DNA of 64,000 nucleotides, taken from IMG/VR virus record IMGVR_UViG_3300002835_000024; one strand, written 5' to 3'. Numbering within the stretch: position 1 is the first letter of the stretch; the number at the start of each line of letters is the position of its first letter. Positions 2,479-57,346 of the stretch are shown here, piece after piece. The stretch is from a virus. The position numbers and the translations under genes were made by a program. Under the pieces are notes generated by a model. It made no database searches. It was given only the letters and a program-made list of their open reading frames with translations, and had not been told where the DNA came from.

Positions 2479-3402
2479 ATGCAACCAGCAAAGAAAACTT
2501 CTTACCTCGGCAATAAAAAACTAAAGAAATCTAACATTGCCATAGAGTGGACGCCAGATCGTATTCGTGAAATGATCAGGTGTAAAGAAGATGCCATTTA
2601 CTTTATTGAAACTTACTGTAAAATTATCCACGTTGACCGTGGACTTGTAAACTTTAAACTGCATCCCTTCCAAAAAGAAATGATAAGTGCCTATTCAGAT
2701 AACCGATTCGTTATCTGTAAGATGCCTCGTCAGGTCGGAAAAACAACCACAACTGCTGGATTTATTCTTTGGCGAGTTCTTTTCAACGAGCATTATAGCG
2801 TGGCTATTCTGGCCAACAAAGACAAAAAAGCCCGAGAAATCCTGGATAGAATCCAAAAGATGTTCGAAAACCTCCCACAGTGGATGCAGCAAGGTGTTAC
2901 TGAATGGAACAAAGGTAACATTGAGCTAGAAAATGGCTCTAAGATTGTGGCTACTTCTACCTCATCCTCCGCTGCTCGTGGTGATACCTATTCATGCGTA
3001 TATTTGGACGAATTTGCCCACGTCGAGAGGAATATACAGGAAGAATTCTTCGCATCAGTTTATCCTACTATTTCTTCGGGTGAAACAACCCAGCTGGTAA
3101 TGACCTCTACGCCAAAAGGTATGGAACTGTTTTACAAGATCTGGGTTGAATCAGAAGAAGGCAGAAACAGCTATAAAAGAGTTGAGGTGCACTGGTCTCA
3201 GGTTCCTGGAAGAGACCAAAAGTGGAAAGAAGAAACCATTGCGAACACCTCTGAGGATCTATTCAGGCAGGAACACGAGTGTGTTGACGGAAAAACACAA
3301 ATAACAGTTAGAAACAAAAAAACAGGAAAAACCAAGAAATTAACAATCAATAAATTTATAAATATGATTGTTAATTCTTTGGAGAATAATAATGCATTAT
3401 AG
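2479..3402 (+). CDS. gp17: Terminase large subunit N-terminal (ATPase) fragment fused to 40-aa N-intein
   Basis: Walker A RQVGKTT and Walker B YLDEFAH; extein ends FRQEHE, then CVDGKTQITV (intein block A) from nt 3280. Confidence 0.92.
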   Translation: MQPAKKTSYLGNKKLKKSNIAIEWTPDRIREMIRCKEDAIYFIETYCKIIHVDRGLVNFKLHPFQKEMISAYSDNRFVICKMPRQVGKTTTTAGFILWRVLFNEHYSVAILANKDKKAREILDRIQKMFENLPQWMQQGVTEWNKGNIELENGSKIVATSTSSSAARGDTYSCVYLDEFAHVERNIQEEFFASVYPTISSGETTQLVMTSTPKGMELFYKIWVESEEGRNSYKRVEVHWSQVPGRDQKWKEETIANTSEDLFRQEHECVDGKTQITVRNKKTGKTKKLTINKFINMIVNSLENNNAL

Positions 3403-4277
3403 AAAAATATGGGAATCGCATTTTGGCGAAATACCAGTTGATGAATATGGATTTAGGTATGAAATTCATCATATAGATGGAAATAGAAAAAATAATTCTA
3501 TTGATAATTTAAAATGTATTTCTATTTTTGAGCATCTTGATATACACATTAAACAAGGTGATTGGGCGGCAGCCGCTTTGATAGGAAAAAGAATTGGTCT
3601 TGGGCCAAACTATATGTCAGAAATACAAAAAGGAAAAAAACGACCTGGTGTTGGTGGAGCCAAAAAAGGAACAATTCCTTGGAACAAAAACAAAAAAGGA
3701 TGTTTTTCTGAAGAAACAATTGAAAAGTTTAAAGTATCCAGAAAAGGTAGAAGATTTTCTCCATTAAAGATAACAGATGAACAATGTAAAGAAATAATAA
3801 CTCAATATAATAAAAAACAAAAAATAAAAGAGGCTGGCACAAAAAGCAAGAATGGAAAAATCATATCATATGAAACAGCTTTTAGTAAGACGTTTTCTGT
3901 TAAATATAATGTAACAGCCAAACAGATATACAACATAATAACAGGAAAACGCAATGTTCTATAAGAACCAAGATTTTGAAATTTTAACACCAAGCGGATT
4001 TAAAAATTTTGCTGGTGTGCAAAAGGTTGTGAAGTGTGGTAAAATGGAACTCGTTTTAAATAATGGTAATCGTTTGGTTTGTGCTCCTAAACATAACATA
4101 TTAACCGATTCTGGTTGGATTGAGTGTTCAAGATTAAAAACAGAAAACAAGGTTATCACAAAAAACGGTTTGGTTGGAATATACCACATTGAACTCATGG
4201 AAGGTGAGCACACTTATTATGATATTGTTGGCGTGCCAAATTTTGAATATTACACAAACGGGATTGTTTCTCATAAC
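3280..4277 (+). mobile_element. Split intein (IntN 3280-3399, IntC 3954-4277) with free-standing HNH endonuclease gene between the halves
   Basis: Cys1 start, C-terminal YYTNGIVSHN/C; joined exteins restore conserved FRQEHE-CEFLGS. Confidence 0.9.
3392..3964 (+). CDS. HNH homing endonuclease with NUMOD-like tail
   Basis: EIHHIDGNRKNNSIDNL...H motif; GGAG RBS at 3381 before ATG 3392; IPWNK basic tail. Confidence 0.85.
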   Translation: MHYRKIWESHFGEIPVDEYGFRYEIHHIDGNRKNNSIDNLKCISIFEHLDIHIKQGDWAAAALIGKRIGLGPNYMSEIQKGKKRPGVGGAKKGTIPWNKNKKGCFSEETIEKFKVSRKGRRFSPLKITDEQCKEIITQYNKKQKIKEAGTKSKNGKIISYETAFSKTFSVKYNVTAKQIYNIITGKRNVL

Positions 4278-5153
4278 TGTGAATTCCTAGGTTCGGCAAA
4301 TACTCTCATCCACCCCACAAAACTTCGAGCAATGGTCCACAAAACGCCAACAATCAACAATAAAATAGGATTGAAAGAATATTACCCGCCAGAAAAAAAT
4401 GTTATCTATGCCATCATTGTAGACACGGCCAGAGGAGTTGGAGAAGACTCTTCAGCGTTTATTGTTGTGAATGTCAACACTTTCCCATATAAAATATGCT
4501 GCACTTTTAAGAACAACCTGATCAGTCCTCTAGTATATCCTAATATCATATACGAAACTGCAAAAAGATATAATGACGCTTTGGTGTTGGTGGAGACTAA
4601 CGATATTGGCCAACAGGTTGCTGATATCCTGCATCATGATCTAGAATACGAAGGCGTTCTAGTTACTGCTAATTCTGGAAGAGCGGGCCAATCTCTTTCG
4701 GGTGGATTTGCCACCTCAACTCATAGGGGCATTCGGACAACAAAACAGGTTAAGAGAATCGGCTGTGCTACGCTCAAAACTCTTGTTGAGTCTGATAAGT
4801 TTATCATAGAAGACTATGAAACTATCTATGAGTTGTCAAGATTTTCTCAAAAAGGGAATTCTTACGAGGCTGAAAGCGGCAATGATGACTTAGCTATGTG
4901 CTGCGTTCTTTTCTCGTGGCTTTCCACACAACATTATTTTAAAGAAATTACTGATCTGGATATTAGGAAAAGAATATTTGAGCAAAACGAAAATATGTTA
5001 GAAGAAGAAATGCTTCCGTTTGGGATATATTCTTCTGGAAATGAAGAAGATGATATTATTATAAATGAAATGCCAACTATGTTAGACCAAAAACAAAGAG
5101 ACGAGTTCAGTTCCTTTTTCGGAGAAAGAGACTTGGAGAAGCAAAATTTATAA
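3954..5153 (+). CDS. gp17: 108-aa C-intein fused to terminase large subunit C-terminal nuclease fragment
   Basis: ILTPSGF, CAPKH (block B), SHN/CEFLGS; then VDTARG-G-D-SA, VETNDIG, DDLAM nuclease motifs. Confidence 0.92.
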   Translation: MFYKNQDFEILTPSGFKNFAGVQKVVKCGKMELVLNNGNRLVCAPKHNILTDSGWIECSRLKTENKVITKNGLVGIYHIELMEGEHTYYDIVGVPNFEYYTNGIVSHNCEFLGSANTLIHPTKLRAMVHKTPTINNKIGLKEYYPPEKNVIYAIIVDTARGVGEDSSAFIVVNVNTFPYKICCTFKNNLISPLVYPNIIYETAKRYNDALVLVETNDIGQQVADILHHDLEYEGVLVTANSGRAGQSLSGGFATSTHRGIRTTKQVKRIGCATLKTLVESDKFIIEDYETIYELSRFSQKGNSYEAESGNDDLAMCCVLFSWLSTQHYFKEITDLDIRKRIFEQNENMLEEEMLPFGIYSSGNEEDDIIINEMPTMLDQKQRDEFSSFFGERDLEKQNL

Positions 5154-21800: not shown

Positions 21801-22334
21801 ATGGAGGGTGTGATGGAAGAAATAGAAACGCTATCTTTGGTATCAGAAACAAATCCAATACTTCGTATGAACACAGAAGTGTTTGATTTTAAGAATCCTC
21901 CAACAAATCCTGTTATTTTGTATAGACAGATGGCAAATACAATGCTAAAGAATAATGGTATTGGATTGGCGGCACCACAAGTAGGTCTTCCATATAGAAT
22001 GTTTGTGATGAGAACTCATCCAGACGTTATTGGAGTATTCAATCCACTTTTGCTTGACACTTCCGAAGAAACCATTATACTAGAAGAAGGTTGTCTGAGT
22101 TTTGATATGCTTTTTATTAAAGTAAAAAGACCGAAACGTATTCGGGTTCGTTTTACAAATCCCGACGGGCAAACTGAAACTAGGGTGTTTGATGGTATGA
22201 CGGCTCGTTGTTTTCTTCACGAGTTGGACCATCTTAATGGAATTACCTATCTGCAAAAAGCAAATAAATTTCATATTGAGACCGCCAAGAAAAGACGCAA
22301 ACAAATTAAAGAAGAGAACCAAAGGATTGCATAA
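21801..22334 (+). CDS. def: Peptide deformylase
   Basis: GIGLAAPQVG, EGCLS, HELDHLNG. Confidence 0.93.
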   Translation: MEGVMEEIETLSLVSETNPILRMNTEVFDFKNPPTNPVILYRQMANTMLKNNGIGLAAPQVGLPYRMFVMRTHPDVIGVFNPLLLDTSEETIILEEGCLSFDMLFIKVKRPKRIRVRFTNPDGQTETRVFDGMTARCFLHELDHLNGITYLQKANKFHIETAKKRRKQIKEENQRIA

Positions 22335-23704
22335 TGGTTAAGGTGATTGTTGCAAAAGAGAAACATGACTGTGAACATTTGCTGGGGCAATATTTAGATG
22401 AGAGCCACTATGATATACTTGTACAAGAAGATACTGATTGCTTCATGCCTCCTGATTGTGACCTTGCTACTCAAATGCAATGTGATAAAAATTGCTCAGA
22501 CTGCCCCACAGGAAAGTCAGAAGCCAGAGTAGCATTTAAATTCCGCAAGAATTATTTCAATAAGAAAATGCAAAGAGACGCATACGAGGGTCTGCGCGAA
22601 GCTGCAACTGAATCACAGAATCGTGGTCTAGCTGCTGGCCCAAGAGGTCCGACTCTCAGTGTCGATGGTCGAGGCGGAAGAGATTGGGTCACTGATTATG
22701 AGCTTGAGATTCTAGACTTCTTTATGAATGAGCGCAGTTCTTTGTTTGACAAAGAAGATATTTCTTCAATCAAACAAAAATATGCAAAAAACAAAAGCAA
22801 ATCTGATGAGACACGCGGAACTGTTTGGCTGAGATCTCAGGTCACAAAACGATATCCTGAGTATCATGGCTGGTTTGATGTTTGGGTTGATGAGGTCCAA
22901 AAACTCCCCAGACAAAAACAAATTGCTGAAGCTACTGAGATTGCTACCAAATGGATATCTTTCACAAATTATGCAAAATCAGTATACTCTGGCGTTGCTG
23001 GCTGGTACGATAGATATCCTAGAATTCCTTTCGGAAGAGCGACATCATACACTCGTGATAATCCGGAAAAATTTGCCAAAGCTTTTCCGTTCCTACAAAA
23101 ACTCAATCAGGGTTATAAAGATTTGATGCCTTGGCGCTGGGGCAATCAAAAGGCTGCCTGTGATAAAATTGATAGCAGGTTTCTTGTACCAGAAACAGTA
23201 TTCACAACAATCACTGTGAACAAAAGCTTTAGGACTGCCGCGCATCGTGACGCTGGAGATTTTCAAGACGGTCTTTCAAATCTTCTTACTCTCGGAGACG
23301 GAGAATACACAGGCGGATATCTGATTTTCCCTGAATATCGAATCGCTGTTGATGTTCGCCCAGGAGATCTTCTTCTGGTAAACAATCATGAAATTATTCA
23401 TGGTAATACTGAGATCAAACTTAATTTCCCAGAAGCAGAAAGAGTTTCTATTGTTTGTTATTTCCGAGAAAAGATGTTGGAGCTTGGATCTTGGGAATAT
23501 GAGAGGACAAGAGAACAATATGTAGAGGATCGAAGAAAAAATAAAGATCATCCTCTGCAAAGACCATTGTGGAATGGAATCTCGCCTTCGATGTGGGATG
23601 AAAAAGAATGGTATGATTATTTGACTGACAAACTGGGCAAAAAAACGTTAGAGAAATATCACCCAGAAGCCTTTGTTTCTTCTCTTGATAGTTTCTTCAA
23701 CTAG
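22334..23704 (+). CDS. TET/JBP-family 2OG-Fe(II) dioxygenase (5-methylpyrimidine oxidase)
   Basis: HRD (HxD), GGYL-FPEY, HGNT, RVSIVCYFR signature; Cys-rich N-terminus. Confidence 0.8.
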   Translation: MVKVIVAKEKHDCEHLLGQYLDESHYDILVQEDTDCFMPPDCDLATQMQCDKNCSDCPTGKSEARVAFKFRKNYFNKKMQRDAYEGLREAATESQNRGLAAGPRGPTLSVDGRGGRDWVTDYELEILDFFMNERSSLFDKEDISSIKQKYAKNKSKSDETRGTVWLRSQVTKRYPEYHGWFDVWVDEVQKLPRQKQIAEATEIATKWISFTNYAKSVYSGVAGWYDRYPRIPFGRATSYTRDNPEKFAKAFPFLQKLNQGYKDLMPWRWGNQKAACDKIDSRFLVPETVFTTITVNKSFRTAAHRDAGDFQDGLSNLLTLGDGEYTGGYLIFPEYRIAVDVRPGDLLLVNNHEIIHGNTEIKLNFPEAERVSIVCYFREKMLELGSWEYERTREQYVEDRRKNKDHPLQRPLWNGISPSMWDEKEWYDYLTDKLGKKTLEKYHPEAFVSSLDSFFN

Positions 23705-23861
23705 GTTTTATAAATATGTCTACGATTAAACGTTGGGTGATTCTTGTTGTGTTTGTTTTACTCATATATCCTTTTTTAATCTTTTTTCATACAGGAATTT
23801 AAAAATAAACTTATAAATATTACTTAGCCGTTTTGTTTTTTATTTTTTCGGAGTATTTTCC

Positions 23862-24098
23862 ATGACAATTCTGAACAGGATTCTGGGCGCGTTTCAAAGA
23901 GCAAAAGATGATATTAAAAATCCATACACTCCGAGAAATGGCAGATTTTCAGCAGCTCAACAGATTGGGATGTTCTTAGATCCAGAAATGTTAAGGGGAA
24001 ACCGCCCAGTTCCAGGAACTTCTGAAGCCGAAAGAGATGCTAGAGAATTTCACAGATTGCAGAGAAATACAAACCGGAGGAGCAGACCACGAGGATAA
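23862..24098 (+). CDS. Small basic hypothetical protein preceded by late promoters (23709-23716, 23812-23819)
   Basis: GGAG RBS; two upstream TATAAATA. Confidence 0.55.
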   Translation: MTILNRILGAFQRAKDDIKNPYTPRNGRFSAAQQIGMFLDPEMLRGNRPVPGTSEAERDAREFHRLQRNTNRRSRPRG

Positions 24099-24117
24099 GA
24101 AATAAGGAATTTATATC

Positions 24118-24825
24118 ATGTGTTCTGTTATTGGGGCGTTTTTTGATCACCCATCAAAAAAACAATTGACTCTTCTGAAAAACGTTTTCATCGAATCTAA
24201 AATAAGAGGAATGCACGCAACAGGCATTTCTTATATTCAAAACAACGAAATTATAACAATAAAAAAACCAATTCCGTCTGACGAGTTCTTCAAAGATGTC
24301 GATTTTGAAGACCATTTTATCAATGAAGACGGCAATCTATACATGATTGGGCATTGTCGATATTCTACCTCAGACCTAGAATATAATCAGCCAATCTATA
24401 ATGATGACATTTCTATTGTTCACAATGGTGTGATCACACAGGAACTTCCAGAAAACTGGAAGTCCATTTACGACATTGTGTGTCAAACTAAAAACGATTC
24501 AGAATTTATTCTAAAGACTCTTGAGCAGAAAAAAGAACCTCTTTCTGCTTGGCCTGATACGTCTATGGCGGTTTGTGAATTATATTCTGACAAAAAGATT
24601 CGTTTTTATAGAAACGCTAAAAGACCGTTAACAATGGCTGTGTTTAATAATGGTGTTATTGTTTCTTCTACAAAAGATATTTTAAAAAGAGCGAATACAG
24701 TTGAAGAAGATTTTATAACGCTTGATTGTGACATGAATGTCATATATACTATAGATAGTCAAAGATTCCAAATTTCTAATGAGTTGATTTCTACGAACAG
24801 GAAAGATTTACAGTATGAATTATGA
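24118..24825 (+). CDS. Class II (Ntn) glutamine amidotransferase
   Basis: N-terminal MC, RG-HATG, GHCRYST, HNGVI, DSE. Confidence 0.85.
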   Translation: MCSVIGAFFDHPSKKQLTLLKNVFIESKIRGMHATGISYIQNNEIITIKKPIPSDEFFKDVDFEDHFINEDGNLYMIGHCRYSTSDLEYNQPIYNDDISIVHNGVITQELPENWKSIYDIVCQTKNDSEFILKTLEQKKEPLSAWPDTSMAVCELYSDKKIRFYRNAKRPLTMAVFNNGVIVSSTKDILKRANTVEEDFITLDCDMNVIYTIDSQRFQISNELISTNRKDLQYEL

Positions 24826-25690
24826 TCCTAAGAGTTTTACTTGGGGGTATGAAATAGAGTGGGGTGATATTGATCGTAGGCTGAATATTCCGGAACATCT
24901 CGGAAAATGGGAATATGCCGAAACAGATATTGTCAATATCAGAGAGCCATACAAATATATTGCTTGTGATCCATTGGGCCTTGATCCTCCTTTTGGTGGA
25001 GAAATCAACACAAAGCCCACTAAAACCTGGCAAGAGCAGGTTGATCGCATTATGGAAATTTATGAGCTCTTTGTTAAAAACGGCAACCAACCATCAGCAT
25101 CATGCGTCAACCACGGTCATCTTCACGTTTTTGTTCCTGGGCTGAAAAATGATATCGAAGGTCTAAAAAATCTAACCAAATATATTCGTCGAAATCAAAA
25201 AGAGACTATAGCTGCTTGTTATAGATTCTATGACGGATATAATATGAAAAAACTCAAAAACGCCACAACATATCTAAAGTTTGACGGTGGCCGAGAAATG
25301 CCAGATTATATGTGTAGCAACATTATAAATTTGGCGAAAGACTTCGACACTTTTATCAAATTGCAATGCGCAGGTAAAGATGGTATATCTATGGGTCGCC
25401 CACTTAGATACGCTATCAATACGTATTGTATGAAACATACAGGTACTATTGAGTTTAGATGTTTTCGTTCTACAACTAATAGATTGGAAATTGAATCTCA
25501 GTTTAAATTTGTAGAAAGATTTATTGACGCTGCTTTGAATAACGGACCAGATGTTTGGGAAATTTTAGCAGATGTTAGTTTAAAGTTCCCAGAATTCAAC
25601 TGGGATGATCTGGAATATGAAGGTTGGATTAAGACAAAATATGACAAATCACGCGGAGAGAAAAAACGCGAATTCCATGAAGTTGCGTAA
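24815..25690 (+). CDS. Amidoligase (COOH-NH2 ligase, Amidoligase_2-like)
   Basis: TWGYEIE, GEINTKP, HGHLHV, GTIEFR. Confidence 0.78.
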   Translation: MNYDPKSFTWGYEIEWGDIDRRLNIPEHLGKWEYAETDIVNIREPYKYIACDPLGLDPPFGGEINTKPTKTWQEQVDRIMEIYELFVKNGNQPSASCVNHGHLHVFVPGLKNDIEGLKNLTKYIRRNQKETIAACYRFYDGYNMKKLKNATTYLKFDGGREMPDYMCSNIINLAKDFDTFIKLQCAGKDGISMGRPLRYAINTYCMKHTGTIEFRCFRSTTNRLEIESQFKFVERFIDAALNNGPDVWEILADVSLKFPEFNWDDLEYEGWIKTKYDKSRGEKKREFHEVA

Positions 25691-26222
25691 GACTTCCAAA
25701 GAAGAATTCGTTCGCCATATTACCGACAAAAAAGAAGATAGATTCGCCAAGACTTTTGTGGCAAAGGCTAATATGCAGGATATCTGGGACAACTGTTATG
25801 GGTTGTGGCTAGAAGAAGATCTTTGTGGTGCTATAATCACAACAGTGTCCAAGAATTACCCCAAGATAATGAATCTTCAATTGCTGCACACATTTCATAA
25901 ACACAGAGGCTCAGGTGTTGGAAAGAAACTCTGTCAGTGGGCTTTGCAAAAAGCTGTTGATGATGGGGTGAATTACTTCAGAGTTTCAGCTGAGCCAGAT
26001 GCTGTTTTGTTTTATGAGAAATGTGGATTTGTATTTCAGGGTAGACAAAAATCAAATAGCCAACTTTCTATTTTTCGCATAATAGATAATAATTTTTCAA
26101 ACGGCGATTATTCTATCTCTGATCCTATCATAAACAAAGCAGTTTACAGAAAAGGCAAAGGTGGATGTGTAGAAGTGTTTGTTAAGTCTGAACAATCTGA
26201 TTTGGAAAAATTCTATGGATAG
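25677..26222 (+). CDS. GNAT acetyltransferase
   Basis: HRGSGVGKKL acetyl-CoA motif, AVLFYEKCGF; probable start ATG 25677. Confidence 0.85.
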   Translation: MKLRKTSKEEFVRHITDKKEDRFAKTFVAKANMQDIWDNCYGLWLEEDLCGAIITTVSKNYPKIMNLQLLHTFHKHRGSGVGKKLCQWALQKAVDDGVNYFRVSAEPDAVLFYEKCGFVFQGRQKSNSQLSIFRIIDNNFSNGDYSISDPIINKAVYRKGKGGCVEVFVKSEQSDLEKFYG

Positions 26223-27219
26223 CAGAGAGCTCTTTATTCGATGGTATGCATGGTCTCTGGAATATAAAGATTGTGATCCTTCTGTTTGGATGACAAATTA
26301 TCTTAATAAAAGATATCAGCATAATGACGAGGAAAGAATATGGCTTTGCTGGCTTTATGGTAACACATATTATCTTCCGACATCATGGGTGTTAAAGAAT
26401 GAGTTTCCCGATTATGAGTTGGCTACTGTAGATAGAATAACAAAATGGAACAACACCAACTATAAAAGACTTAGATATCAAACAGACACAAAATACAATA
26501 AAGGCCATTTGCCTTCTATGTTTGAGTCTTACCAAAAATATTTTGGAAACAAATTGCAAAGAGATGTATTAGAATCATTATACTCTGACAATGAAAAACA
26601 AAATTTCGATAATATATGGAATTCTGTAAATAAAAACTTCTATAAGTTTGGGAGATATACAACATGGTTTTATCTTCAACATCTTAAACATACCGCAGGA
26701 ATAAAAATAGAACCAACATCACTAATGCTGTCAGATTATTCTGGGAGTAAATCACACAGAAATGGTTTGTGTTATGCTCTAAGCAAACAAGATTGGATAA
26801 ATAATAAACTTACTGAGAAAGAATATCAGTGGCTGCAAGCAAAGAGCGACGATATTCTAATTGAAATGAGACAAAGATTTCCTCAGTTGTCCTCACAATT
26901 AGATTATTTTACTATGGAAACATGTCTCTGTAGTTTTAAGAAAATATTCAGAGAGAATTCTTCTAGATATTTGGGATATTATCTCGATAGACAAGCTGAA
27001 GAGATATCTACTGTTTCTTCTGATAGTTGGAACGGGATAGACTGGGACGTTTTGTGGCAAGCTCGAAAAGAAACTATTGATAAAAAGCTTGACAAACGCA
27101 CAGGAATAGACAAGAATAGGTTTGGCGAATACCTGAAGACTGGTTCCATTGATAGAGTAGAGTGGATGTTTAAAGATTCCGTTAAAAAAGATATTGGATT
27201 GGAGATGTTTTTCGCATGA
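26215..27219 (+). CDS. Alpha-glutamyl/putrescinyl-thymine pyrophosphorylase-like (aGPT-Pplase, amino acid:DNA transferase)
   Basis: DCDP, WL-WLYG-TY, FGRYTTWFYLQ (HhH-like), ETCLC-FKK, RYLGYY; adjacent kinase. Confidence 0.72.
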   Translation: MDSRELFIRWYAWSLEYKDCDPSVWMTNYLNKRYQHNDEERIWLCWLYGNTYYLPTSWVLKNEFPDYELATVDRITKWNNTNYKRLRYQTDTKYNKGHLPSMFESYQKYFGNKLQRDVLESLYSDNEKQNFDNIWNSVNKNFYKFGRYTTWFYLQHLKHTAGIKIEPTSLMLSDYSGSKSHRNGLCYALSKQDWINNKLTEKEYQWLQAKSDDILIEMRQRFPQLSSQLDYFTMETCLCSFKKIFRENSSRYLGYYLDRQAEEISTVSSDSWNGIDWDVLWQARKETIDKKLDKRTGIDKNRFGEYLKTGSIDRVEWMFKDSVKKDIGLEMFFA

Positions 27220-27752
27220 AAGTTATTGCTATATTTGGAGAGCCAGGCAGCGGTAAATCCACCCTGATGAATGAATTGATGGCGCGTATTGGGATCTCAA
27301 GAGAAGTCAAAACTGATTTCAAACTTGTGCCATATCATCAAAAAGAAAATATCTATATTCTCGGTAAATATGAAGTCGGAGAAGTTTTTGGTGGGACTGA
27401 TAAAATGTCTATGGCTGTTCAGCCAGAAGCCATAAAATTTCTTGCTAGTTTAGATGATAATTCAGTTGTTCTTTTCGAAGGCGATAGGCTATGCACTTCG
27501 TCTTTTCTTGATCACTGCAACGATAAATATAATCTGACGATGGTATATCTCTCCACGTCAAAATCAATCCGTACAGAAAGATTTAAAGAACGAAACAGCA
27601 ATCAAGATGAAACTTGGTTGAAAGGTCGTGAAAGCAAAATCAATAATATACTTTCTAATCTTAATCTTAAATTCATTACTGAAATCTTTGAGAACAATAA
27701 AAGAGAGGATTCAGAAAAAATTATAAACTTTATCATGGAAAAAATTAAATGA
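27216..27752 (+). CDS. P-loop nucleotide kinase (5-hmU DNA kinase-like)
   Basis: GEPGSGKST, LGKY, GGTD-SM, EGDRL. Confidence 0.75.
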   Translation: MKVIAIFGEPGSGKSTLMNELMARIGISREVKTDFKLVPYHQKENIYILGKYEVGEVFGGTDKMSMAVQPEAIKFLASLDDNSVVLFEGDRLCTSSFLDHCNDKYNLTMVYLSTSKSIRTERFKERNSNQDETWLKGRESKINNILSNLNLKFITEIFENNKREDSEKIINFIMEKIK

Positions 27753-28135
27753 CACCAGTTGAGAAATGGTACTTGAGAAAAAATTCTGACATAGAGAATG
27801 GCGGCGTCAAATACGATAAAGATAAGCCGCCGATGGATCTTATACCCACAGAAGCTTTGTTTGAAGTCGCTGAAATATTAAAATTCGGGGCTGAAAAATA
27901 TGAGCCATACAATTGGGCCAAAGGTATGGCGTATTCGAGACTCACTGCGGCGGCACTGAGACATATCTTCAAATTCAATTCTGGAGAGGATAATGATCCT
28001 GAAACTGGGAAATCTCACATTTCCCATGCCATTTGTTGTCTTCTCTTCTTAGCAGAATACGAAAAACGGAAAGAACATTATGAGTCTTTTGACGATAGAT
28101 TTGATTGGAATACAAAAAAGACTAAAAACGCTTGA
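27749..28135 (+). CDS. DUF5664 dATP/dGTP diphosphohydrolase-like protein
   Basis: GVKYD-DKP-DLIP, GAEKY-NW-KG, D-DPETG-SH-HA. Confidence 0.82.
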   Translation: MTPVEKWYLRKNSDIENGGVKYDKDKPPMDLIPTEALFEVAEILKFGAEKYEPYNWAKGMAYSRLTAAALRHIFKFNSGEDNDPETGKSHISHAICCLLFLAEYEKRKEHYESFDDRFDWNTKKTKNA

Positions 28136-28182: not shown

Positions 28183-29073
28183 ATGGAATCCCAAACAAAA
28201 ATGAACCTAGAGGACGGATCTCTCAAGATCGAAGTCCCAACAGAAGTATTGAAAAATAGAAAACTATTTGTTGCCACTCCAATGTATGGCGGACAATGCG
28301 CGGGAATGTTTGCTCGATCGATCGCAGACCTTTCCGCTCTTTGTCAGAAATACGGAATTCAGCTGAGACTTTATTTCCTATTCAACGAGTCTCTGATTAC
28401 TCGAGGTAGGAACTACTGTGCTGACGAATTCATGAGGTCTGGTGACACCCACCTAATGTTCATCGACTCGGATATCGGCTTCAATGCCAACGATGTTATC
28501 GCTCTTCTTGCTCTGCAATCAGAGAATCCAGAGGAAGATGAATATGATATTCTCTGCGGCCCATATCCTAAGAAGTGTATCTCTTGGGAGAAAATTAAAC
28601 AAGCTGTTGATAAAGGATTCGCGGATCAAGATCCTAGCGTCCTAGATCGATTTGTTGGCGATTATGTCTTCAATCCTGCTAACGGTAAGACTGAAATTTC
28701 TCTTACCAAACCAGCGGAAATTCTTGAGGCTGGTACAGGCTTCATGATGATTCGACGCAATACTTTTGAGAAGTTTGCTGAGGCTTACCCACAGCAATCT
28801 TATAAACCAGATCACGTAAGAACTGAACACTTTGACGGTTCTCGTGAGATCATGGCGTTCTTCGACACGCCAATTGATCCTGAATCCAAACGCTATCTGT
28901 CAGAAGATTATATGTTCTGTCAGTGGTCTAGGAAAATTGGACTGAAGGTTTGGCTGTGCCCATGGATGCAGCTGAAGCATGTTGGTTCATATATATTTGG
29001 CGGTTCTCTTGTTGATCTTGCCCAAATCGGTGCTGCCGCAACGGCAGACGTAAGCAAACTAAAGAAAAAATAG
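28183..29073 (+). CDS. GT-A-fold glycosyltransferase-like protein
   Basis: VATPMYGG, SLITRGRN, FIDSDI (DxD), GTGFMMI, LSEDY. Confidence 0.6.
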   Translation: MESQTKMNLEDGSLKIEVPTEVLKNRKLFVATPMYGGQCAGMFARSIADLSALCQKYGIQLRLYFLFNESLITRGRNYCADEFMRSGDTHLMFIDSDIGFNANDVIALLALQSENPEEDEYDILCGPYPKKCISWEKIKQAVDKGFADQDPSVLDRFVGDYVFNPANGKTEISLTKPAEILEAGTGFMMIRRNTFEKFAEAYPQQSYKPDHVRTEHFDGSREIMAFFDTPIDPESKRYLSEDYMFCQWSRKIGLKVWLCPWMQLKHVGSYIFGGSLVDLAQIGAAATADVSKLKKK

Positions 29074-29086
29074 GAGTATTTTTATT

Positions 29087-29749
29087 ATGAAACTTTCCAA
29101 AGAAACCCTTGGAGTTCTTGAGAACTTCTCTTCTATCAACCCAGTTATCCTTGTTCGAAAGGGTAAACAACTCAGGACTATTTCTCCTTCAAAGGCTGTT
29201 TTTGCAGTTGCTAATGTTGAAGAAGAGTTCGATCGTCAGTTCGCGATCTTTGATCTTAAGAAGTTTATTGGTTGTCTTTCTCTGTTTGATTCTCCAGATC
29301 TAGAATTCAATGACAAGTTCGTGAATATTTCAGAGGATGATCAACAACTGTCTTATTATTTTGCTGATCCAGAACAAATCTCGTCAGCAGCACCAGAAAA
29401 AACAATCAATCTTCCTTCTGAAGATGTTGAATTCAAACTGCTGGCCAAAGATTTCCAGAAGATCGTGAAGGCTATGTCTGTTGCTGGTCTGTCCAACATC
29501 TCTGTTGTTGGTGATGGATCTAACCTTATGCTTAAAGCTCTCGATCCAGAAGGAAAAACTAATGATGCCTTCACGATCAATATCGGCAAAACTGATATGA
29601 AATTCAAGGCAGTTTTCCGAGCAGAGAATCTTAAGATGCTTTCTGATGACTACGATGTTGTTATCTGCTCTAGGGGTATCGCAAGTTTCACAGGGAGCAA
29701 AGTGAAATACTTCATTGCTACTGAGGAAAAGTACAGCAAGTTTCAATAA
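29087..29749 (+). CDS. gp45: Sliding clamp gp45
   Basis: MKLSKETL-NFSSIN, FAIFDL-F, YFIA-E. Confidence 0.92.
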   Translation: MKLSKETLGVLENFSSINPVILVRKGKQLRTISPSKAVFAVANVEEEFDRQFAIFDLKKFIGCLSLFDSPDLEFNDKFVNISEDDQQLSYYFADPEQISSAAPEKTINLPSEDVEFKLLAKDFQKIVKAMSVAGLSNISVVGDGSNLMLKALDPEGKTNDAFTINIGKTDMKFKAVFRAENLKMLSDDYDVVICSRGIASFTGSKVKYFIATEEKYSKFQ

Positions 29750-36225: not shown

Positions 36226-36277
36226 GACAAAGTTTAATATTATAAATAGAGGCATAGTAAATGTGGAAACGTATTAA

Positions 36278-37360
36278 ATGTCTCTGATGGAAGCTATAAT
36301 TGACGTTCTCAACGCAAAAACTCCCCCATCGGCGGAGCAAAAAGCCAAACTTGATGAAAACGAAAGTCCGTTTGGTCCCTCCAAGCTTGCGATTAAATCT
36401 ATTATAGATAATATACCAAAAGTTTCAAGATATACTGATGAAATAGAAAAAACATTTCAAGAAGAAATATCGAAAAAAGATAAAATTCCTTCAAAACTGA
36501 TAACTGTTTCTAATGGATCTGATCCATTATTAAGAGTTTTTGGACAGATGATCGCCAAAGACGGGCAAGGACAGCTTATTGTTCCAAATACTACCTACGA
36601 ATCAGTAGTCACAGAATCTAAAAAATATGGAGCTTTGATAACTGGCGTTGATATGAACAAAGATTTGTCTATAAATTTAACAGCCATAGAAAACAAAATA
36701 AATAAACAAACCACTGGAATATATATTTGTAATCCCAACAACCCAACAGGTAATAAAGTTAACATAGCACAATTGAGAGATTTTATAGCACGAGTATCAA
36801 AATATACTCCATGTTTAATCGACGAAGCCTATATACATATGGTAGATAACTGGGAGAAAAACACCGTAATAGATATGGTCGAGAAATTCGATAATGTTAT
36901 GGTAACTCGAACGTTTTCCAAAATTTATGGACTGGCTGGACAAAGAATTGGTTATGCTGCAGCTAGTCCCAATTTAATGTATAAATTGAATAAAATTCTT
37001 CCCGGACCAGGTTTTACCAACTCTTTGGGGTTGTATGCGGCTTTAGCGAGCATGGAAGATCAGAAATTTTTACCTGACGCAAAGAACAAATTTAAAAAAG
37101 CCAGAAATTCAATTTATGATATAGTTAAAAATTTGGGTTTAGAAATGGCGGCTGATCCCCAGGCATGTTTTGTTTATTTCAATACCAAAATGAATGCAGA
37201 AAATTTTCAAAAACAAATGGCTAAATTCGGCGTTCTTGTTGTTGGAAGAGTTTGGGCTAAATATCCAACTTGGTCTCGCGTGTCAGTGGGATTAGACTGG
37301 GAGATAGACAAATTTAAAAACTCTATCGAGAAAGTAATTAAAGCGGAGAAACAAAAATAA
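36278..37360 (+). CDS. hisC: Histidinol-phosphate aminotransferase-like PLP enzyme, late promoter 36241-36248
   Basis: NESPFGPS, NGSD, CNPNNPTG, DEAY, RTFSKIYGLAG-RIGY. Confidence 0.85.
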   Translation: MSLMEAIIDVLNAKTPPSAEQKAKLDENESPFGPSKLAIKSIIDNIPKVSRYTDEIEKTFQEEISKKDKIPSKLITVSNGSDPLLRVFGQMIAKDGQGQLIVPNTTYESVVTESKKYGALITGVDMNKDLSINLTAIENKINKQTTGIYICNPNNPTGNKVNIAQLRDFIARVSKYTPCLIDEAYIHMVDNWEKNTVIDMVEKFDNVMVTRTFSKIYGLAGQRIGYAAASPNLMYKLNKILPGPGFTNSLGLYAALASMEDQKFLPDAKNKFKKARNSIYDIVKNLGLEMAADPQACFVYFNTKMNAENFQKQMAKFGVLVVGRVWAKYPTWSRVSVGLDWEIDKFKNSIEKVIKAEKQK

Positions 37361-40611: not shown

Positions 40612-43095
40612 ATGGGAAGTTTTTACACAAACGTTTCTAGAAAGGGTAACGATCTTCTCGTGAGAGGATTCGACTCCAACGGAAATCGTTTCAACCGAAA
40701 GGTTAAATACCAGCCATATCTTTTCATACCCTCTCAAACAGAGGATAAATTCAAGACCATTGAAGGCAAATCTGTCTCCAAGATTGAATTTGATTCGATG
40801 TCTGAAGCCAGAGAATTCCTGAAGCAATATGAAGATGTTGCTGGTATGGAAATCTATGGCTTCACTGATTTTATCTACGCTTATATCAACGACAGATACA
40901 AGTCCCAGATATCCTATGATCCTTCTCTGATCAGAACAGTGTTTATCGACATCGAGGTTTCCTCTGCTGGAGGATTCCCAGACATTGCAACTGCAGACAA
41001 GCCGATTACAGCCATCACTATTTCTTGGCGTGGGCGCAAACATGTGTTTGGTCTGAGAGACTTCAAGCCCCACAAAGACAATGTGATATACTATCACTGC
41101 AAAGACGAAGAGACTCTGCTGGCGAAGTTCCTGACTTATTGGCAGGAAATATCGCCAGATTGTGTTACAGGCTGGAACGTAGAGTTCTTCGATATTCCGT
41201 ATATCATCAACAGAATCAAAGCGGTCTTTGATGACGCCCAAGCTGCCAGGCTTTCTCCCTGGTTTCTCTTGAGAGAATACGAAGTTGAGATCAGAGGTAA
41301 GATGAACAAGGCTTACACTCCTGTTGGCATCAACGTTCTCGATTACATTAACCTGTACAAGAAGTTTACCTACTCTCAGCAAGAGTCTTATACTCTCAAT
41401 CATATATCGTATGTCGAGCTTGGTGAGAAGAAGGTTGACTATTCTCAGTATGGTTCTCTTAATGATTTGTATGAGAAGAATCACCAGCTGTTCATTGAAT
41501 ATAACGTCAAAGACGTTGAGCTTGTTGAGCGCCTAGAAGACAAGATGAAACTGATTGAGCTTGTCTTTGCCATGGCTTATGATGCCAAGGTCAACTTCGA
41601 AGATACTCTTGGTTCAGTTAAGCAGTGGGATGTTATCATCCACAACTATCTGCTTTCTCAGAATATTGTTGTCCCACAATTCAAGAAAAAGCCAAACTCT
41701 GAAATCGTTGGTGGCTACGTCAAAGAGCCTGTCATCGGAATGAGCAAGTGGGTCGTCTCAATGGACTTCAAGAGTCTGTATCCCCACCTGATCATGACCT
41801 ATAACATCTCGCCAGAAACTCTAGCTGGCAAAGTTGACAGATTCTATTCTGTTGACGAACTCTTACAGAAGCAGTTCGAGCACGATGGCCAATACAGTTA
41901 CTGCGCCAACGGAACCTATTACTCTAAAGATAAGCAGGGGTTCCTTCCTTATCTTATGCAGAAGATGTATAATGATCGCGCTGAAGCCCAGAAGCAGCTT
42001 AAGCAAATCAAGAAGCAATATAACGATACAAAAGATGAGAGTTTGCTGAAGCAAATATCCGCTCTCAACAACAAGCAGATGGCCAAGAAGATTCAGCTGA
42101 ACTCAGCTTACGGTGCTCTTGCCAATATGTATTTCCGTTGGTTCAATGCTGATATTGCCGAGGCTATCACCCTTTCTGGTCAGCTTGCCATTCGTTGGGT
42201 TGAGACGAACGTCAACAGATATCTCAATGGTATGTTCAAGACCAAAAAAGATTATGTCATTGCGGTTGATACCGATTCAAACTATATCACCCTCGAGAAA
42301 TTGGTTGAGCAATATCAATCTTTCTCCAAAACCGATGATGTGAAAAAGATCGTTGATGTGATTGATAAATTCGTTGAGAGTAAGCTGAAGCCTTTCATTG
42401 ATTCAGCTTGCCAAGATCTCCACGAATATATGAATTCTTATGAGCAAAAGCTTGTTATGAACCGAGAGGCTATCGCAGATAAAGGTATCTGGAAAGCCAA
42501 GAAGATGTATATCCTGAACGTTCTTGATCAAGAAGGCGTTCGTTACGATTCCCCCAAGCTAAAGATGATGGGCATCGAGGCGATCAAATCCTCAACTCCA
42601 ACTTCCTGTAGACAGAATCTCAAGAAGGCATTTGAGATTGTCATGAATCAAACAGAGGGCCAACTCCAGCAATTCGTTGCTGACTTCAAGAGTCAGTTTT
42701 CTAGTTTGCCGTTTGAAGAGGTTGCGTTCCCTCGAGGTGTCAAGGATATCGAAAAGTGGGAAGGCAAGAACGGAAACTATCTTTCAGGAACACCAATCCA
42801 CGTCAAAGCCTCTATGGCGTTCAATGCTATTGTTGATGATCTTGGTCTTCAGAATAAATATGAGAAGATCGTCTCTGGTTCCAAGATCAAATTCTGTTAT
42901 ATGAGAACTCCCAATCGCTACAACATACAGGTATTGGGGTGTCCATCAACAATGCCAGACGAATTCAAGATGCAGAAACACATAAACTATGACATGCAAT
43001 TTGATAAGGGCTTCATTGAACCGCTACGCAGTATCACCGAAACCATTGGCTGGAATATCGAGAAGCTCTCAACCCTCGAAGATTTTTGGAATTAA
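40612..43095 (+). CDS. gp43: DNA polymerase gp43 (family B)
   Basis: DIEV exonuclease motif, DFKSLYP, K-LNSAYG, DTDS, KKMY. Confidence 0.98.
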   Translation: MGSFYTNVSRKGNDLLVRGFDSNGNRFNRKVKYQPYLFIPSQTEDKFKTIEGKSVSKIEFDSMSEAREFLKQYEDVAGMEIYGFTDFIYAYINDRYKSQISYDPSLIRTVFIDIEVSSAGGFPDIATADKPITAITISWRGRKHVFGLRDFKPHKDNVIYYHCKDEETLLAKFLTYWQEISPDCVTGWNVEFFDIPYIINRIKAVFDDAQAARLSPWFLLREYEVEIRGKMNKAYTPVGINVLDYINLYKKFTYSQQESYTLNHISYVELGEKKVDYSQYGSLNDLYEKNHQLFIEYNVKDVELVERLEDKMKLIELVFAMAYDAKVNFEDTLGSVKQWDVIIHNYLLSQNIVVPQFKKKPNSEIVGGYVKEPVIGMSKWVVSMDFKSLYPHLIMTYNISPETLAGKVDRFYSVDELLQKQFEHDGQYSYCANGTYYSKDKQGFLPYLMQKMYNDRAEAQKQLKQIKKQYNDTKDESLLKQISALNNKQMAKKIQLNSAYGALANMYFRWFNADIAEAITLSGQLAIRWVETNVNRYLNGMFKTKKDYVIAVDTDSNYITLEKLVEQYQSFSKTDDVKKIVDVIDKFVESKLKPFIDSACQDLHEYMNSYEQKLVMNREAIADKGIWKAKKMYILNVLDQEGVRYDSPKLKMMGIEAIKSSTPTSCRQNLKKAFEIVMNQTEGQLQQFVADFKSQFSSLPFEEVAFPRGVKDIEKWEGKNGNYLSGTPIHVKASMAFNAIVDDLGLQNKYEKIVSGSKIKFCYMRTPNRYNIQVLGCPSTMPDEFKMQKHINYDMQFDKGFIEPLRSITETIGWNIEKLSTLEDFWN

Positions 43096-56633: not shown

Positions 56634-57346
56634 ATCCCCCCTAACTTTGAAAAGGATTAAATATGATAGGACAGTACGATGAAAATTGAGCTAGGCACCG
56701 ATTCCGGTGATTATGAATTGCTGCGCGAGGCGGTGCAGTTGGCGCCGAACGGCTACTACCTTGCCACCGAGATCGGCGTGCGAGAAGGCGGCTCCACCCA
56801 AATGATTATGGAAGAGCTTGCCGCGAAGAAGTTTCGCGGGATGCTGACCCTGATCGACCACTACGGTGGGATGCCGCAATGGCACTCGGATACAGAGTGT
56901 GTCGTGCTCGACTACACGAACGAAATGCGTAACCGAGCGATGTCGTCGATCTACCAGTTGGCCAACCACCACAAGATCAACTTCCAGTTTTTCAATCTGG
57001 CCGACGACGACTTCTTCGCCTTCTTTCCAGACGGCGTACCGATCTATAGCGGCGGTGTGCGGATGTTGGTGAACGAATACTGTTTCGCTCACTTGGACGG
57101 CCCGCACCGCGTAGAACTGGTGGAGAAGGAAGCCGCGTTTTTCGCACCACGCATGGTGAGGGGTGGTGTGATCGTCACTGACGACATCCAACTCTTCAAC
57201 TTCAAACAGTTCACCAAGTTCGCCAAGACTATTGGCCTAGAGCTTGTGAAGAAGGGCGGCCTCAAAGCGGTGTTCCAGAAGCAATGACGTTGTCGCCTCG
57301 AAGCTAAAACCAAAGAGGCAGGCGAGATACCTGTCGTCCGCTCCAA
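56595..57346 (+). mobile_element. Islet flanked by 40-bp direct repeats of the tRNA-Gly 3' half (56595-56634; 57307-57346)
   Basis: Identical AAACCAAAGAGGCAGGCGAGATACCTGTCGTCCGCTCCAA; cargo visibly more GC-rich. Confidence 0.8.
56679..57287 (+). CDS. Class I SAM-dependent methyltransferase (Methyltransf_24-like)
   Basis: EIGVREGGS, HLDGPH, GGVIVTDD. Confidence 0.8.
   Translation: MKIELGTDSGDYELLREAVQLAPNGYYLATEIGVREGGSTQMIMEELAAKKFRGMLTLIDHYGGMPQWHSDTECVVLDYTNEMRNRAMSSIYQLANHHKINFQFFNLADDDFFAFFPDGVPIYSGGVRMLVNEYCFAHLDGPHRVELVEKEAAFFAPRMVRGGVIVTDDIQLFNFKQFTKFAKTIGLELVKKGGLKAVFQKQ

Follow-up and report, generated by a model that had tools for sequence, protein, structure and literature searches.

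Gene content of the locus

The stretch of viral DNA analysed here (IMG/VR record IMGVR_UViG_3300002835_000024), referred to as the window and numbered throughout over its full 64,000 nt, comes from the genome of a T4-like phage. Between its peptide deformylase gene and the gp45 side, the open reading frame (ORF) listing places a cluster of seven + strand genes (22334–28135), headed by a TET/JBP-family dioxygenase, which very probably forms a gene set for post-replicative thymidine hypermodification. This high confidence, drawn from sequence comparison and structural modelling, applies to the pathway class only, comprising the four steps set out below, and extends neither to the order in which the accessory genes act nor to tethering of the enzymes to the sliding clamp.

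Gene assignments are by Pfam unless another basis is given. The first gene (22334–23704) encodes a 456-aa TET/JBP-family Fe(II)/2-oxoglutarate (2OG) dioxygenase, or 5mYOX (Tet_JBP, PF12851, 91.8 bits against a gathering score of 34.9, 3.6e-26), here called TET. It is followed by a stand-alone class II, N-terminal-nucleophile (Ntn) glutamine amidotransferase (GATase; 24118–24825; GATase_6, 37.1 against 27, 3.8e-9), an Amidoligase_2-family protein, that is, a glutamine-synthetase-like carboxylate-amine ligase assigned on family-level evidence (24815–25690), and a GNAT acyltransferase (25605–26222; Acetyltransf_10, 45.1 against 23.6, 1.2e-11, with Acetyltransf_7 and Acetyltransf_1 also matching). 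The remaining three genes encode an amino-acid:DNA transferase (AADT) of aGPT-Pplase clade 2 (26215–27219; ADDT PF18724, 69.6 against 26.2, 4.2e-19), a P-loop kinase resembling 5-hydroxymethyl-deoxyuridine (5-hmdU) DNA kinases (27216–27752; Ploopntkinase3, 49.8 against 27, 3.9e-13), and a DUF5664/dGTP_diPhyd_N domain protein (27749–28135; 118.9 against 27, 1e-34). A preliminary description of this DNA, made from its letters and ORFs alone, had named these seven genes at this place and on this strand; the ORFs and Pfam bear it out, the TET/JBP, GATase and aGPT-Pplase profiles scoring above cut-off and the amidoligase holding at family level. When 50,697 phage records were searched by megablast with the cluster, none matched.

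The surrounding gene order is that of a T4-like replication module. The window carries neck, tail-sheath, terminase, portal, prohead-protease and scaffold genes, then UvsW, gp55, gp47, gp46 and peptide deformylase; 3′ of the cluster lie gp45, gp44, gp62 and RegA, with UvsX farther on. By tblastn to annotated T4-like polymerases, its DNA polymerase is closest to those of cyanophage-type T4 relatives. The peptide deformylase gene (21801–22334, + strand; Pep_deformylase, 1.8e-38) has a stop that overlaps the TET start, and it lies 5′ of TET in most related loci, cassette-free loci included; we count it as a flanking gene. On the other side, the cluster is separated from the gp45 sliding clamp (29087–29749, + strand; phrog_223, 1.8e-69) by a GT-A-fold glycosyltransferase-like gene, phrog_1574 (28183–29073, + strand).

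Start and stop codons overlap as ATGA at 22334, 27216 and 27749, with further overlaps at 24815 and 26215, an arrangement that fits translational coupling. The cluster had been described as largely translationally coupled between gp46 and gp45, which agrees with these overlaps but not with the 413-bp gap (23705–24117) that parts TET from the GATase and is not kept in most relatives. This gap holds a 78-aa basic ORF (23862–24098, + strand), a doubtful member with no Pfam or PHROG match, which is found in one other locus only (L084), is poorly conserved and may be a recent insertion. It also holds two + strand copies of TATAAATA, the T4 late-promoter core, 5′ of the cassette (23709–23716 and 23812–23819). 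The window contains 17 copies of this motif against 3.7 expected, 16 of them on the + strand and many just 5′ of virion genes. Because two copies lie in the gap, the cassette may receive additional late, clamp-activated transcription.

The dioxygenase and the source of the hydroxymethyl group

In TET, the HRD motif (H304/D306), H356 and RVSIVCY (R370 to Y376) are invariant in 24 homologues; H304, D306 and H356 represent the iron triad and R370 the 2OG-binding arginine. Its profile gave marginal matches only to PDB sequences, and a fold search was needed. With the AlphaFold2 model (predicted local distance difference test score, pLDDT, 79), the top 26 Foldseek matches were all TET-type nucleic-acid base dioxygenases (CcTet, NgTET1, TET2 or CMD1), and DNA-bound TET structures were matched best. 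VIA-align aligned the model to human TET2 with a Z score of 19.0 and a root-mean-square deviation of 3.4 over 253 residues spanning 1–395; the N-terminal region is thus modelled as part of the TET fold. The first 228 residues carry a variable, Cys-rich insert, and 81 residues follow C375 as a C-terminal extension past the last conserved Cys, as in the 5mYOX clade C1. We take TET to be a putative thymine-to-5-hydroxymethyluracil (5hmU) oxidase acting on DNA.

The source of the hydroxymethyl group was sought beyond the window in five related IMG/VR genomes of 96–100% estimated completeness, whose TETs are 55–67% identical to that of the window. All five carry TET, GATase, AADT and kinase, and three of the five also have amidoligase and GNAT. 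PF00303 (the thymidylate synthase/hydroxymethylase family) and PF00145 (C5-methyltransferases, C5-MTases) were found in none of the five, and ThyX was found in all. Since the relatives have neither family and all have ThyX, thymine should be the only 5-methylpyrimidine in the phage DNA. Neither tblastn searches of the window, with ThyX and with the hydroxymethylase homologue of Pseudomonas phage M6 as queries, nor a C5-MTase motif scan gave a match, Pfam not having been run on every ORF. The preliminary description, which had seen no hydroxymethylase or C5-methyltransferase in the window, is upheld by these searches and by the five near-complete relatives.

Three considerations weigh against TET as the source of 5-hmdU. 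The absence of hydroxymethylase and C5-MTase genes was established in relatives at 55–67% TET identity and in a 64-kb window; some clade C1 5mYOXs without ParB are inactive in Escherichia coli (PMC13229309, PMC8256090); and the window holds no ParB-like gene. No ParB_N signal was present in the window, and in the five relatives there was only a weak 14-bit match, inside a protein (c12) of one cassette type. A ParB domain fused within the N-terminal 228 residues of TET was considered and ruled out, the model aligning to TET2 over residues 1–395 and Pfam being blank there.

The enzyme could instead be a true TET acting on 5-methylcytosine (5mC), in which case the cluster would hypermodify cytosine. 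Its best structural matches are indeed 5mC-oxidising TETs, and phage TET clades A and B oxidise 5mC (PMC8256090). This reading is very improbable: neither PF00145 nor a dCMP methylase or hydroxymethylase of the thymidylate-synthase family occurs in the five near-complete relatives, none was detected in the window, and the relatives of the AADT and of the 5-hmdU DNA kinase (5-HMUDK) have been characterised on 5-hmdU. Moreover, a C5-methyltransferase is present in only 6% of 5mYOX pathways (O’Toole et al., PMC13229309).

The transferase and the kinase

The family profile of the AADT aligns along its length with Salmonella phage ViI gp247, a serine:DNA transferase (hhalign 99.9%, E 8.8e-36, 323 columns), at 24% identity. 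Together with the PF18724 score, this match settles in its favour the earlier assignment of 26215–27219 to the aGPT-Pplases. In 21 sequences E247 and C251 (METCLC) do not vary, and the pair lines up with the ET..C of gp247 and of M6 gp51, in both of which mutation of the Glu or Cys abolishes activity (PMC8989533). Against M6 gp51 alone the profile match is weak (hhalign probability 2%), though the ET.LC motif aligns. The AADT ORF is open upstream from a TTG at 26179.

The kinase gene overlaps the AADT stop, and its family profile matches M6 gp54, a 5-hmdU DNA kinase (hhalign 96.6%, E 6.3e-10), with a weak match to ViI gp243 (33%) and an invariant Walker A motif (G8...G13-K14). Characterised 5-HMUDK kinases add one phosphate, giving 5-phosphomethyl-dU (5-PmdU) (PMC8989533); the earlier statement that the hydroxymethyl group is pyrophosphorylated by such a kinase is therefore in error. 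AADT chemistry has been proposed to involve an exocyclic methylene that amines or hydroxyls could reach as nucleophiles (PMC8989533). PDB sequence searches with the AADT, kinase, phrog_1574 and amidoligase profiles returned nothing useful.

A TET-anchored hot-spot of exchangeable cassettes

Two scans of IMG/VR, one seeded with the AADT and one with TET, yielded 159 loci in total, the AADT-seeded set being unbiased for TET. TET and GATase lie upstream in all 37 AADT-seeded loci that extend at least 4.2 kb in that direction. In TET-seeded loci with at least 6 kb downstream, the kinase is present in 29/44, the AADT in 22/44 and the GATase in 14/44. Gene clustering of 59 loci distinguished about 28 gene orders between TET and the phrog_1574/gp45 pair.

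The window has the order GATase-amidoligase-GNAT-AADT-kinase, which other loci supplement with the extra 430–490-aa protein c12. Simpler cassettes consist of GATase-GNAT-AADT-kinase or of GATase-AADT-kinase, the latter being common and present also in a 96%-complete genome. Further types are N6/N4-methyltransferase-AADT-kinase; AADT-inositol-1-phosphate-synthase-c10-kinase, found also in the cultured Caulobacter phage Cr30; a TET-associated glycosyltransferase (TAGT, PF20691) alone; a GT1 glycosyltransferase; and the kinase alone. Judged by gene order, TET is the fixed anchor of a cassette hot-spot with many interchangeable architectures. A conserved TET beside swappable DNA-modification cassettes is what would be expected if TET supplies a common 5-hydroxymethyl handle, or ‘primer’, on DNA. 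One dioxygenase combined with many cassettes amounts to a natural combinatorial library of DNA-modifying enzymes, and the hot-spot plainly illustrates diversification by an arms race within a replication module.

The c12 protein lies between GNAT and AADT in six loci (L102:13485-14777, L029:7705-9051 and four others) and is missing from the window. It combines a GIY-YIG-like N-terminus with a weak ParB_N-like DGNH segment (14 bits), and might be either a homing endonuclease or the kind of ParB-type activator that is described for dioxygenases of clade C1. The DUF5664 gene also follows a glycosyltransferase-only cassette, and a DUF3310 protein holds its position in 31 cassettes; by this distribution DUF5664 goes with the locus, not with the AADT cassette. 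Likewise, phrog_1574 lies directly 5′ of gp45 in 59/59 loci and also in Stenotrophomonas phage DLP6 and in Cr30. It has no Pfam match, and its assignment comes from an AlphaFold2 model (pLDDT 77) for which Foldseek ranked STIV A197 first (1.1e-7), followed by COLGALT1, LH3 and ppGalNAcT, with an invariant DxD motif (D95, D97). Base-J-type glycosylation of 5hmU is among the possibilities suggested by this model.

Cultured phages carry related arrangements. In Cr30 (L002, KF301602, 8001-16894), an AADT-like gene, inositol-1-phosphate synthase and the kinase accompany a TET that bears the annotation ‘SNF2 DNA repair protein’. This is the cassette type of metagenomic loci L096–L099, and it makes Cr30 a tractable phage in which to identify one such base. 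The first four genes of Mycobacterium phage Prince (L170, 1-3465) encode a ParB-like protein, a ‘thymidine hydroxylase’, an AADT-like protein annotated as a DNA glycosylase and a kinase annotated as adenylate kinase. Mycobacteriophage records matching the window kinase number 374, and those matching the AADT number 27. Melnitz phages show TET and kinase matches. The TET-kinase-AADT grouping thus recurs in unrelated phages, with all three in Prince and the TET and kinase matches in Melnitz phages.

GATase, accessory enzymes and a proposed pathway

Four segments of the GATase are invariant in 16 homologues (M1-C2, R81-Y-S-T84, H102-N-G104 and N126-D-S-E129) and comprise the Ntn cysteine, the N-G oxyanion motif and the glutamine-binding motifs. 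In PurF/GlmS-type enzymes, such motifs bind the α-carboxylate and α-amine of free glutamine. Because these residues are kept, the GATase is most likely a glutaminase that supplies ammonia, rather than a hydrolase of a DNA-tethered residue. It accompanies all 66 AADTs that are at least 50% identical to that of the window and is missing with 15/17 distant AADTs; its occurrence varies with AADT subclade, not with the amidoligase, and it is present in cassettes that have no amidoligase. Stand-alone GATases also share an invariant D-L-Q near the C-terminus after a variable-length linker (24790–24822 in the window), which looks like a short docking motif and differs from the clamp-type tail discussed below.

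The amidoligase is the weakest of the seven assignments. PF12224 is matched by 7/16 aligned family members (best E 3e-8), the Atlas feature score to Amidoligase clusters is 0.98, and the alignment has conserved ExE, GGExN, HxH and ExR motifs; at the level of the family, the Amidoligase_2 assignment holds. The true start of the GNAT is probably an internal Met near 25641–25677. Two points count against the roles proposed for these enzymes: the window amidoligase taken alone falls under the Pfam Amidoligase_2 threshold (15.3 against 22), and the GNAT has no BLAST match among cultured phages, PaMx11-type included.

The pathway that we consider very probable in its class would run as follows. Replication would proceed with ordinary thymine, dTMP being made by ThyX in the relatives (step 1). 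TET would hydroxylate thymine in DNA to 5-hmdU (step 2), the P-loop kinase would phosphorylate this to 5-PmdU (step 3), and the Cys/Glu dyad of the AADT would exchange the phosphate for a nitrogen nucleophile (step 4). Its foundations are the domain identities, the catalytic residues, the homology to characterised enzymes, the linkage and the lack of an alternative 5-hydroxymethyl source in the relatives, from which we infer each chemical step, the order of the steps and the product. That a TET/JBP enzyme makes the hydroxymethyl group on the DNA, ahead of the kinase and the aGPT-Pplase, had been put forward in the preliminary description and gains support from the modelled fold, the homology, the linkage and the relatives.

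For the accessory genes, the order that we prefer, tentatively and at somewhat less than even confidence, places ammonia first. The GATase would hydrolyse free glutamine and pass ammonia to the AADT, yielding 5-aminomethyl-dU (5-NmdU), the two proteins acting like the two domains of PurF. In PurF, ammonia from the Ntn-GATase displaces pyrophosphate from phosphoribosyl pyrophosphate. The co-variation of the GATase with AADT subclade suggests such a PurF-like amination, and the nested cassettes (GATase-AADT-kinase; the same with GNAT; the same with amidoligase and GNAT) suggest the AADT itself as the partner of the GATase. The amidoligase would then join a carboxylate to the aminomethyl amine with ATP, the glutamate just released being a possible donor, and the GNAT would acylate the remaining amine. 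Without an amidoligase, the GNAT would arrive at 5-acetylaminomethyl-dU, which PaMx11 makes along a different route; where the cassette is of the window type, the amidoligase would acylate the amine first. Ammonia as the AADT nucleophile is the simplest scheme that covers the nested series, which suggests it, with the drawback that this is an argument from parsimony only. The GATase/amidoligase/GNAT chemistry is the uncharacterised part of the pathway, for which the nested series gives a step order and predicted intermediates.

A different order within the same pathway class would have the AADT install a free amino acid through its α-amine or hydroxyl, as M6 gp51 and ViI gp247 do, after which GATase and amidoligase would amidate the carboxylate in an asparagine-synthetase-like reaction and the GNAT would acetylate. 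It is in keeping with the known specificities, all characterised clade-2 AADTs using amino acids or putrescine (PMC8989533), with the lengthwise alignment of the window AADT family to ViI gp247, and with the adjacent, overlapping GATase and amidoligase genes. We regard it as unlikely, because amidoligase-free cassettes of GATase, AADT and kinase are common and would leave the GATase without an ATP-dependent partner, and because the GATase follows the AADT subclade, not the amidoligase. The preliminary description had the GATase, amidoligase and GNAT elaborating an amine adduct. Strict linkage agrees with a joint role for these enzymes; going by the nested cassettes, the GATase may act together with the AADT and not only extend an amino-acid adduct.

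Clamp-type C-terminal tails

A short C-terminal pattern, [STGAND]L[EDTQ]x[FLWY][FLWYM], was scanned in the 400 window ORFs of at least 40 aa and is present in only four: DNA polymerase, TET, GNAT and AADT. TET ends in SSLDSFFN (23678–23701, + strand), a candidate clamp-binding motif, the AADT in GLEMFFA and the GNAT in SDLEKFYG. The gp43 DNA polymerase of the window, ending in STLEDFWN (43069–43092, + strand), serves as an internal reference; a T4-type polymerase ends in SLDFLFG, and the window gp55 has GLEKFL near its end. By family, the pattern occurs in 124/129 TETs, 11/11 TAGTs, 4/4 GT1 and 3/3 c15 proteins, 23/40 AADTs and 6/19 GNATs, and in zero GATases, amidoligases, kinases, inositol-phosphate synthases, methyltransferases, DUF3310 and c5 proteins. 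The TET tail is preceded by a linker variable in length and sequence, and the gp55 tail likewise sits behind a variable linker (PMC2988020). The tails of gp43, gp55 and gp33 are interchangeable gp45 ligands on variable linkers (PMC2988020; PMC7892883).

These resemblances in sequence, together with the modelling described next, make it probable, at a level modestly above even, that the tailed enzymes that touch DNA (TET, AADT and GNAT) ride on gp45 clamps left on replicated DNA. A complex prediction for gp45 with TET residues 396–456 scored 0.43 (runs 0.37, 0.48 and 0.43), whereas the highest-scoring of three controls reached 0.00, with at least 60% of contacts agreeing between runs and a partner pLDDT of at least 41. 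The mark applied was reached by 58/80 solved complexes and 2/110 mismatched pairs, and scores of 0.60 or below included only 7 of the 80 solved complexes and both passing mismatches. The prediction lends weak support, and since a similar complex has been solved (the RB69 clamp with the polymerase peptide), the pass may reflect likeness only. Clamp docking is further weakened by the strict pattern being met by only some GNAT and AADT homologues, and by the lack of a tail in the kinase (0/42), though the kinase must act on DNA too.

The tails might alternatively hold the modification enzymes together in an assembly, or serve as a lineage-specific stability or export signal. The weak complex prediction, the tailless kinase and a degenerate tail in the Cr30 TET speak for such a role, which we hold to be doubtful, given that the tail has the form of the phage’s own polymerase terminus and of the T4 SLDFLFG, that it sits behind a variable linker as in gp55 (PMC2988020), and that ViI gp247 has no such tail, nor do the homologues encoded by phage M6 (gp51 included) and by mycobacteriophage Prince. 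The tail is present in the TETs of the T4-like phages DLP6 and C48C1. If gp45 does bind the tails, we would know of no earlier example of phage base-modifying enzymes using the sliding clamp, and in the literature searched no paper described such enzymes among the clients of gp45. Such docking would explain how the whole genome is modified post-replicatively in time for packaging, and may explain the inactivity of some clade C1 enzymes when expressed alone in E. coli.

The tails also bear on whether these genes belong together at all. TET could be a core gene making plain 5hmU marks or acting in regulation, with the GATase, amidoligase and GNAT serving a small molecule or a protein. DLP6 and C48C1 have TET without any cassette, the Amidoligase_2 and GATase families are generic, and the clamp-type tail is missing from both the GATase and the amidoligase. 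This separation of roles is nevertheless improbable in view of the strict TET-GATase-...-AADT-kinase order in 37/37 unbiased loci, the translational coupling, and a GNAT tail that is the same as those of TET and the AADT.

Taken as one, the several parts of our preferred scheme form a more speculative picture, which we hold with low confidence. In it, a clamp-docked toolbelt would tie hypermodification to replication, direct amination of 5-PmdU would fall to GATase and AADT as a split PurF-like pair, and amidoligase and GNAT would build an acyl-aminomethyl-dU new to DNA, for example N-acetyl-γ-glutamyl-aminomethyl-dU. The toolbelt would also take in the glycosyltransferases of the sister cassettes.

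Relation to characterised and predicted systems

The pathway is not of a new kind, and its earlier description as a candidate novel one does not stand: the class has already been predicted and in part demonstrated (PMC8989533, PMC13229309), as the preliminary description had itself allowed in noting that similar neighbourhoods might have been predicted computationally. Lee et al. (2021) reported viral contigs without a dUMP hydroxymethylase in which TET_JBP lies beside 5-HMUDK and aGPT-Pplase2 (PMC8989533, Fig. 2 sequences 22-25), with amidoligase and glutaminotransferase genes co-associated and of a function not known there (PMC8989533). The gene families are the same as here and the hydroxyl acceptor was likewise inferred to form in situ; unlike the present proposal, that work gives no GATase or amidoligase mechanism (PMC8989533). 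O’Toole et al. (2026) demonstrated phage thymine dioxygenases and stated that GATases, P-loop kinases and AADTs consistently accompany the ParB-dependent subclass of clade C1 (PMC13229309). The cluster therefore mainly adds a member to a known class of TET-primed thymidine hypermodification. New here are the T4-like hot-spot with its many cassettes, the GATase-AADT co-variation and the clamp-type tails, and the lack of ParB in the cassette is a difference.

The likeness to clade C1 neighbourhoods (PMC13229309) includes a TET without a neighbouring C5-methyltransferase, linked GATase, kinase and AADT genes, a C-terminus extended past the last conserved Cys and, as proposed here, post-replicative thymine oxidation as the first step. 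In contrast to them, the window has no ParB-like activator, and its 456-aa enzyme has a Cys-rich N-terminal region, lies in a T4-like replication module and bears a gp43-like tail.

The Pseudomonas phage PaMx11 pathway to 5-acetylaminomethyl-dU employs gp46 (AADT), gp47 (flavin adenine dinucleotide, FAD, lyase), gp48 (acetyltransferase) and gp49 (kinase). It shares with our scheme the course from kinase through AADT and amine to GNAT acetylation, with 5-NmdU as a likely shared intermediate. In PaMx11, however, 5-hmdU comes from a dUMP hydroxymethylase and 5-NmdU arises via glycine and an FAD-dependent lyase, whereas the window has TET, a GATase and an extra amidoligase, no FAD enzyme, and a GNAT with no BLAST relative among cultured-phage proteins. 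ViI gp247 and M6 gp54 are homologous to the AADT and the kinase, with the Glu/Cys dyad and Walker A motif kept; ViI and M6 differ in incorporating 5-hmdU pre-replicatively, and gp247 and M6 gp51 have no clamp-type tail.

The comparison with PurF would lie in the chemistry, in which a phosphate-type group leaves its carbon and ammonia delivered by an Ntn class II GATase takes its place. PurF consists of one polypeptide and its substrate is a small molecule, whereas here two proteins would act on DNA, and the AADT is not homologous to the phosphoribosyltransferase domain. With the T4 gp45 clients gp43, gp55 and gp33, the tailed enzymes appear to share a short C-terminal motif, both hydrophobic and acidic, behind a variable linker (SLDSFFN in TET, SLDFLFG in a T4-type gp43); the known clients differ in being a polymerase and transcription factors (PMC2988020, PMC7892883).

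Other features of the window

A class I/II aminotransferase dependent on pyridoxal phosphate (PLP) (36278–37360; Pfam 6.9e-42) was considered as an obligatory PLP enzyme of the pathway and rejected, as it is missing from 10 related genomes, one of which has the full cassette. A copy of TATAAATA precedes this gene (region 36241–37360). A 202-aa class I S-adenosylmethionine-dependent methyltransferase (56679–57287; Methyltransf_24, 2.3e-8) falls outside the C5 DNA methyltransferase families. In the region 2479–5153 the large terminase is divided, with Terminase_6N in one ORF (2479–3402) and Terminase_6C in another (3954–5153), and an extra ORF (3368–3964) overlaps both ends of the gap between the two halves.

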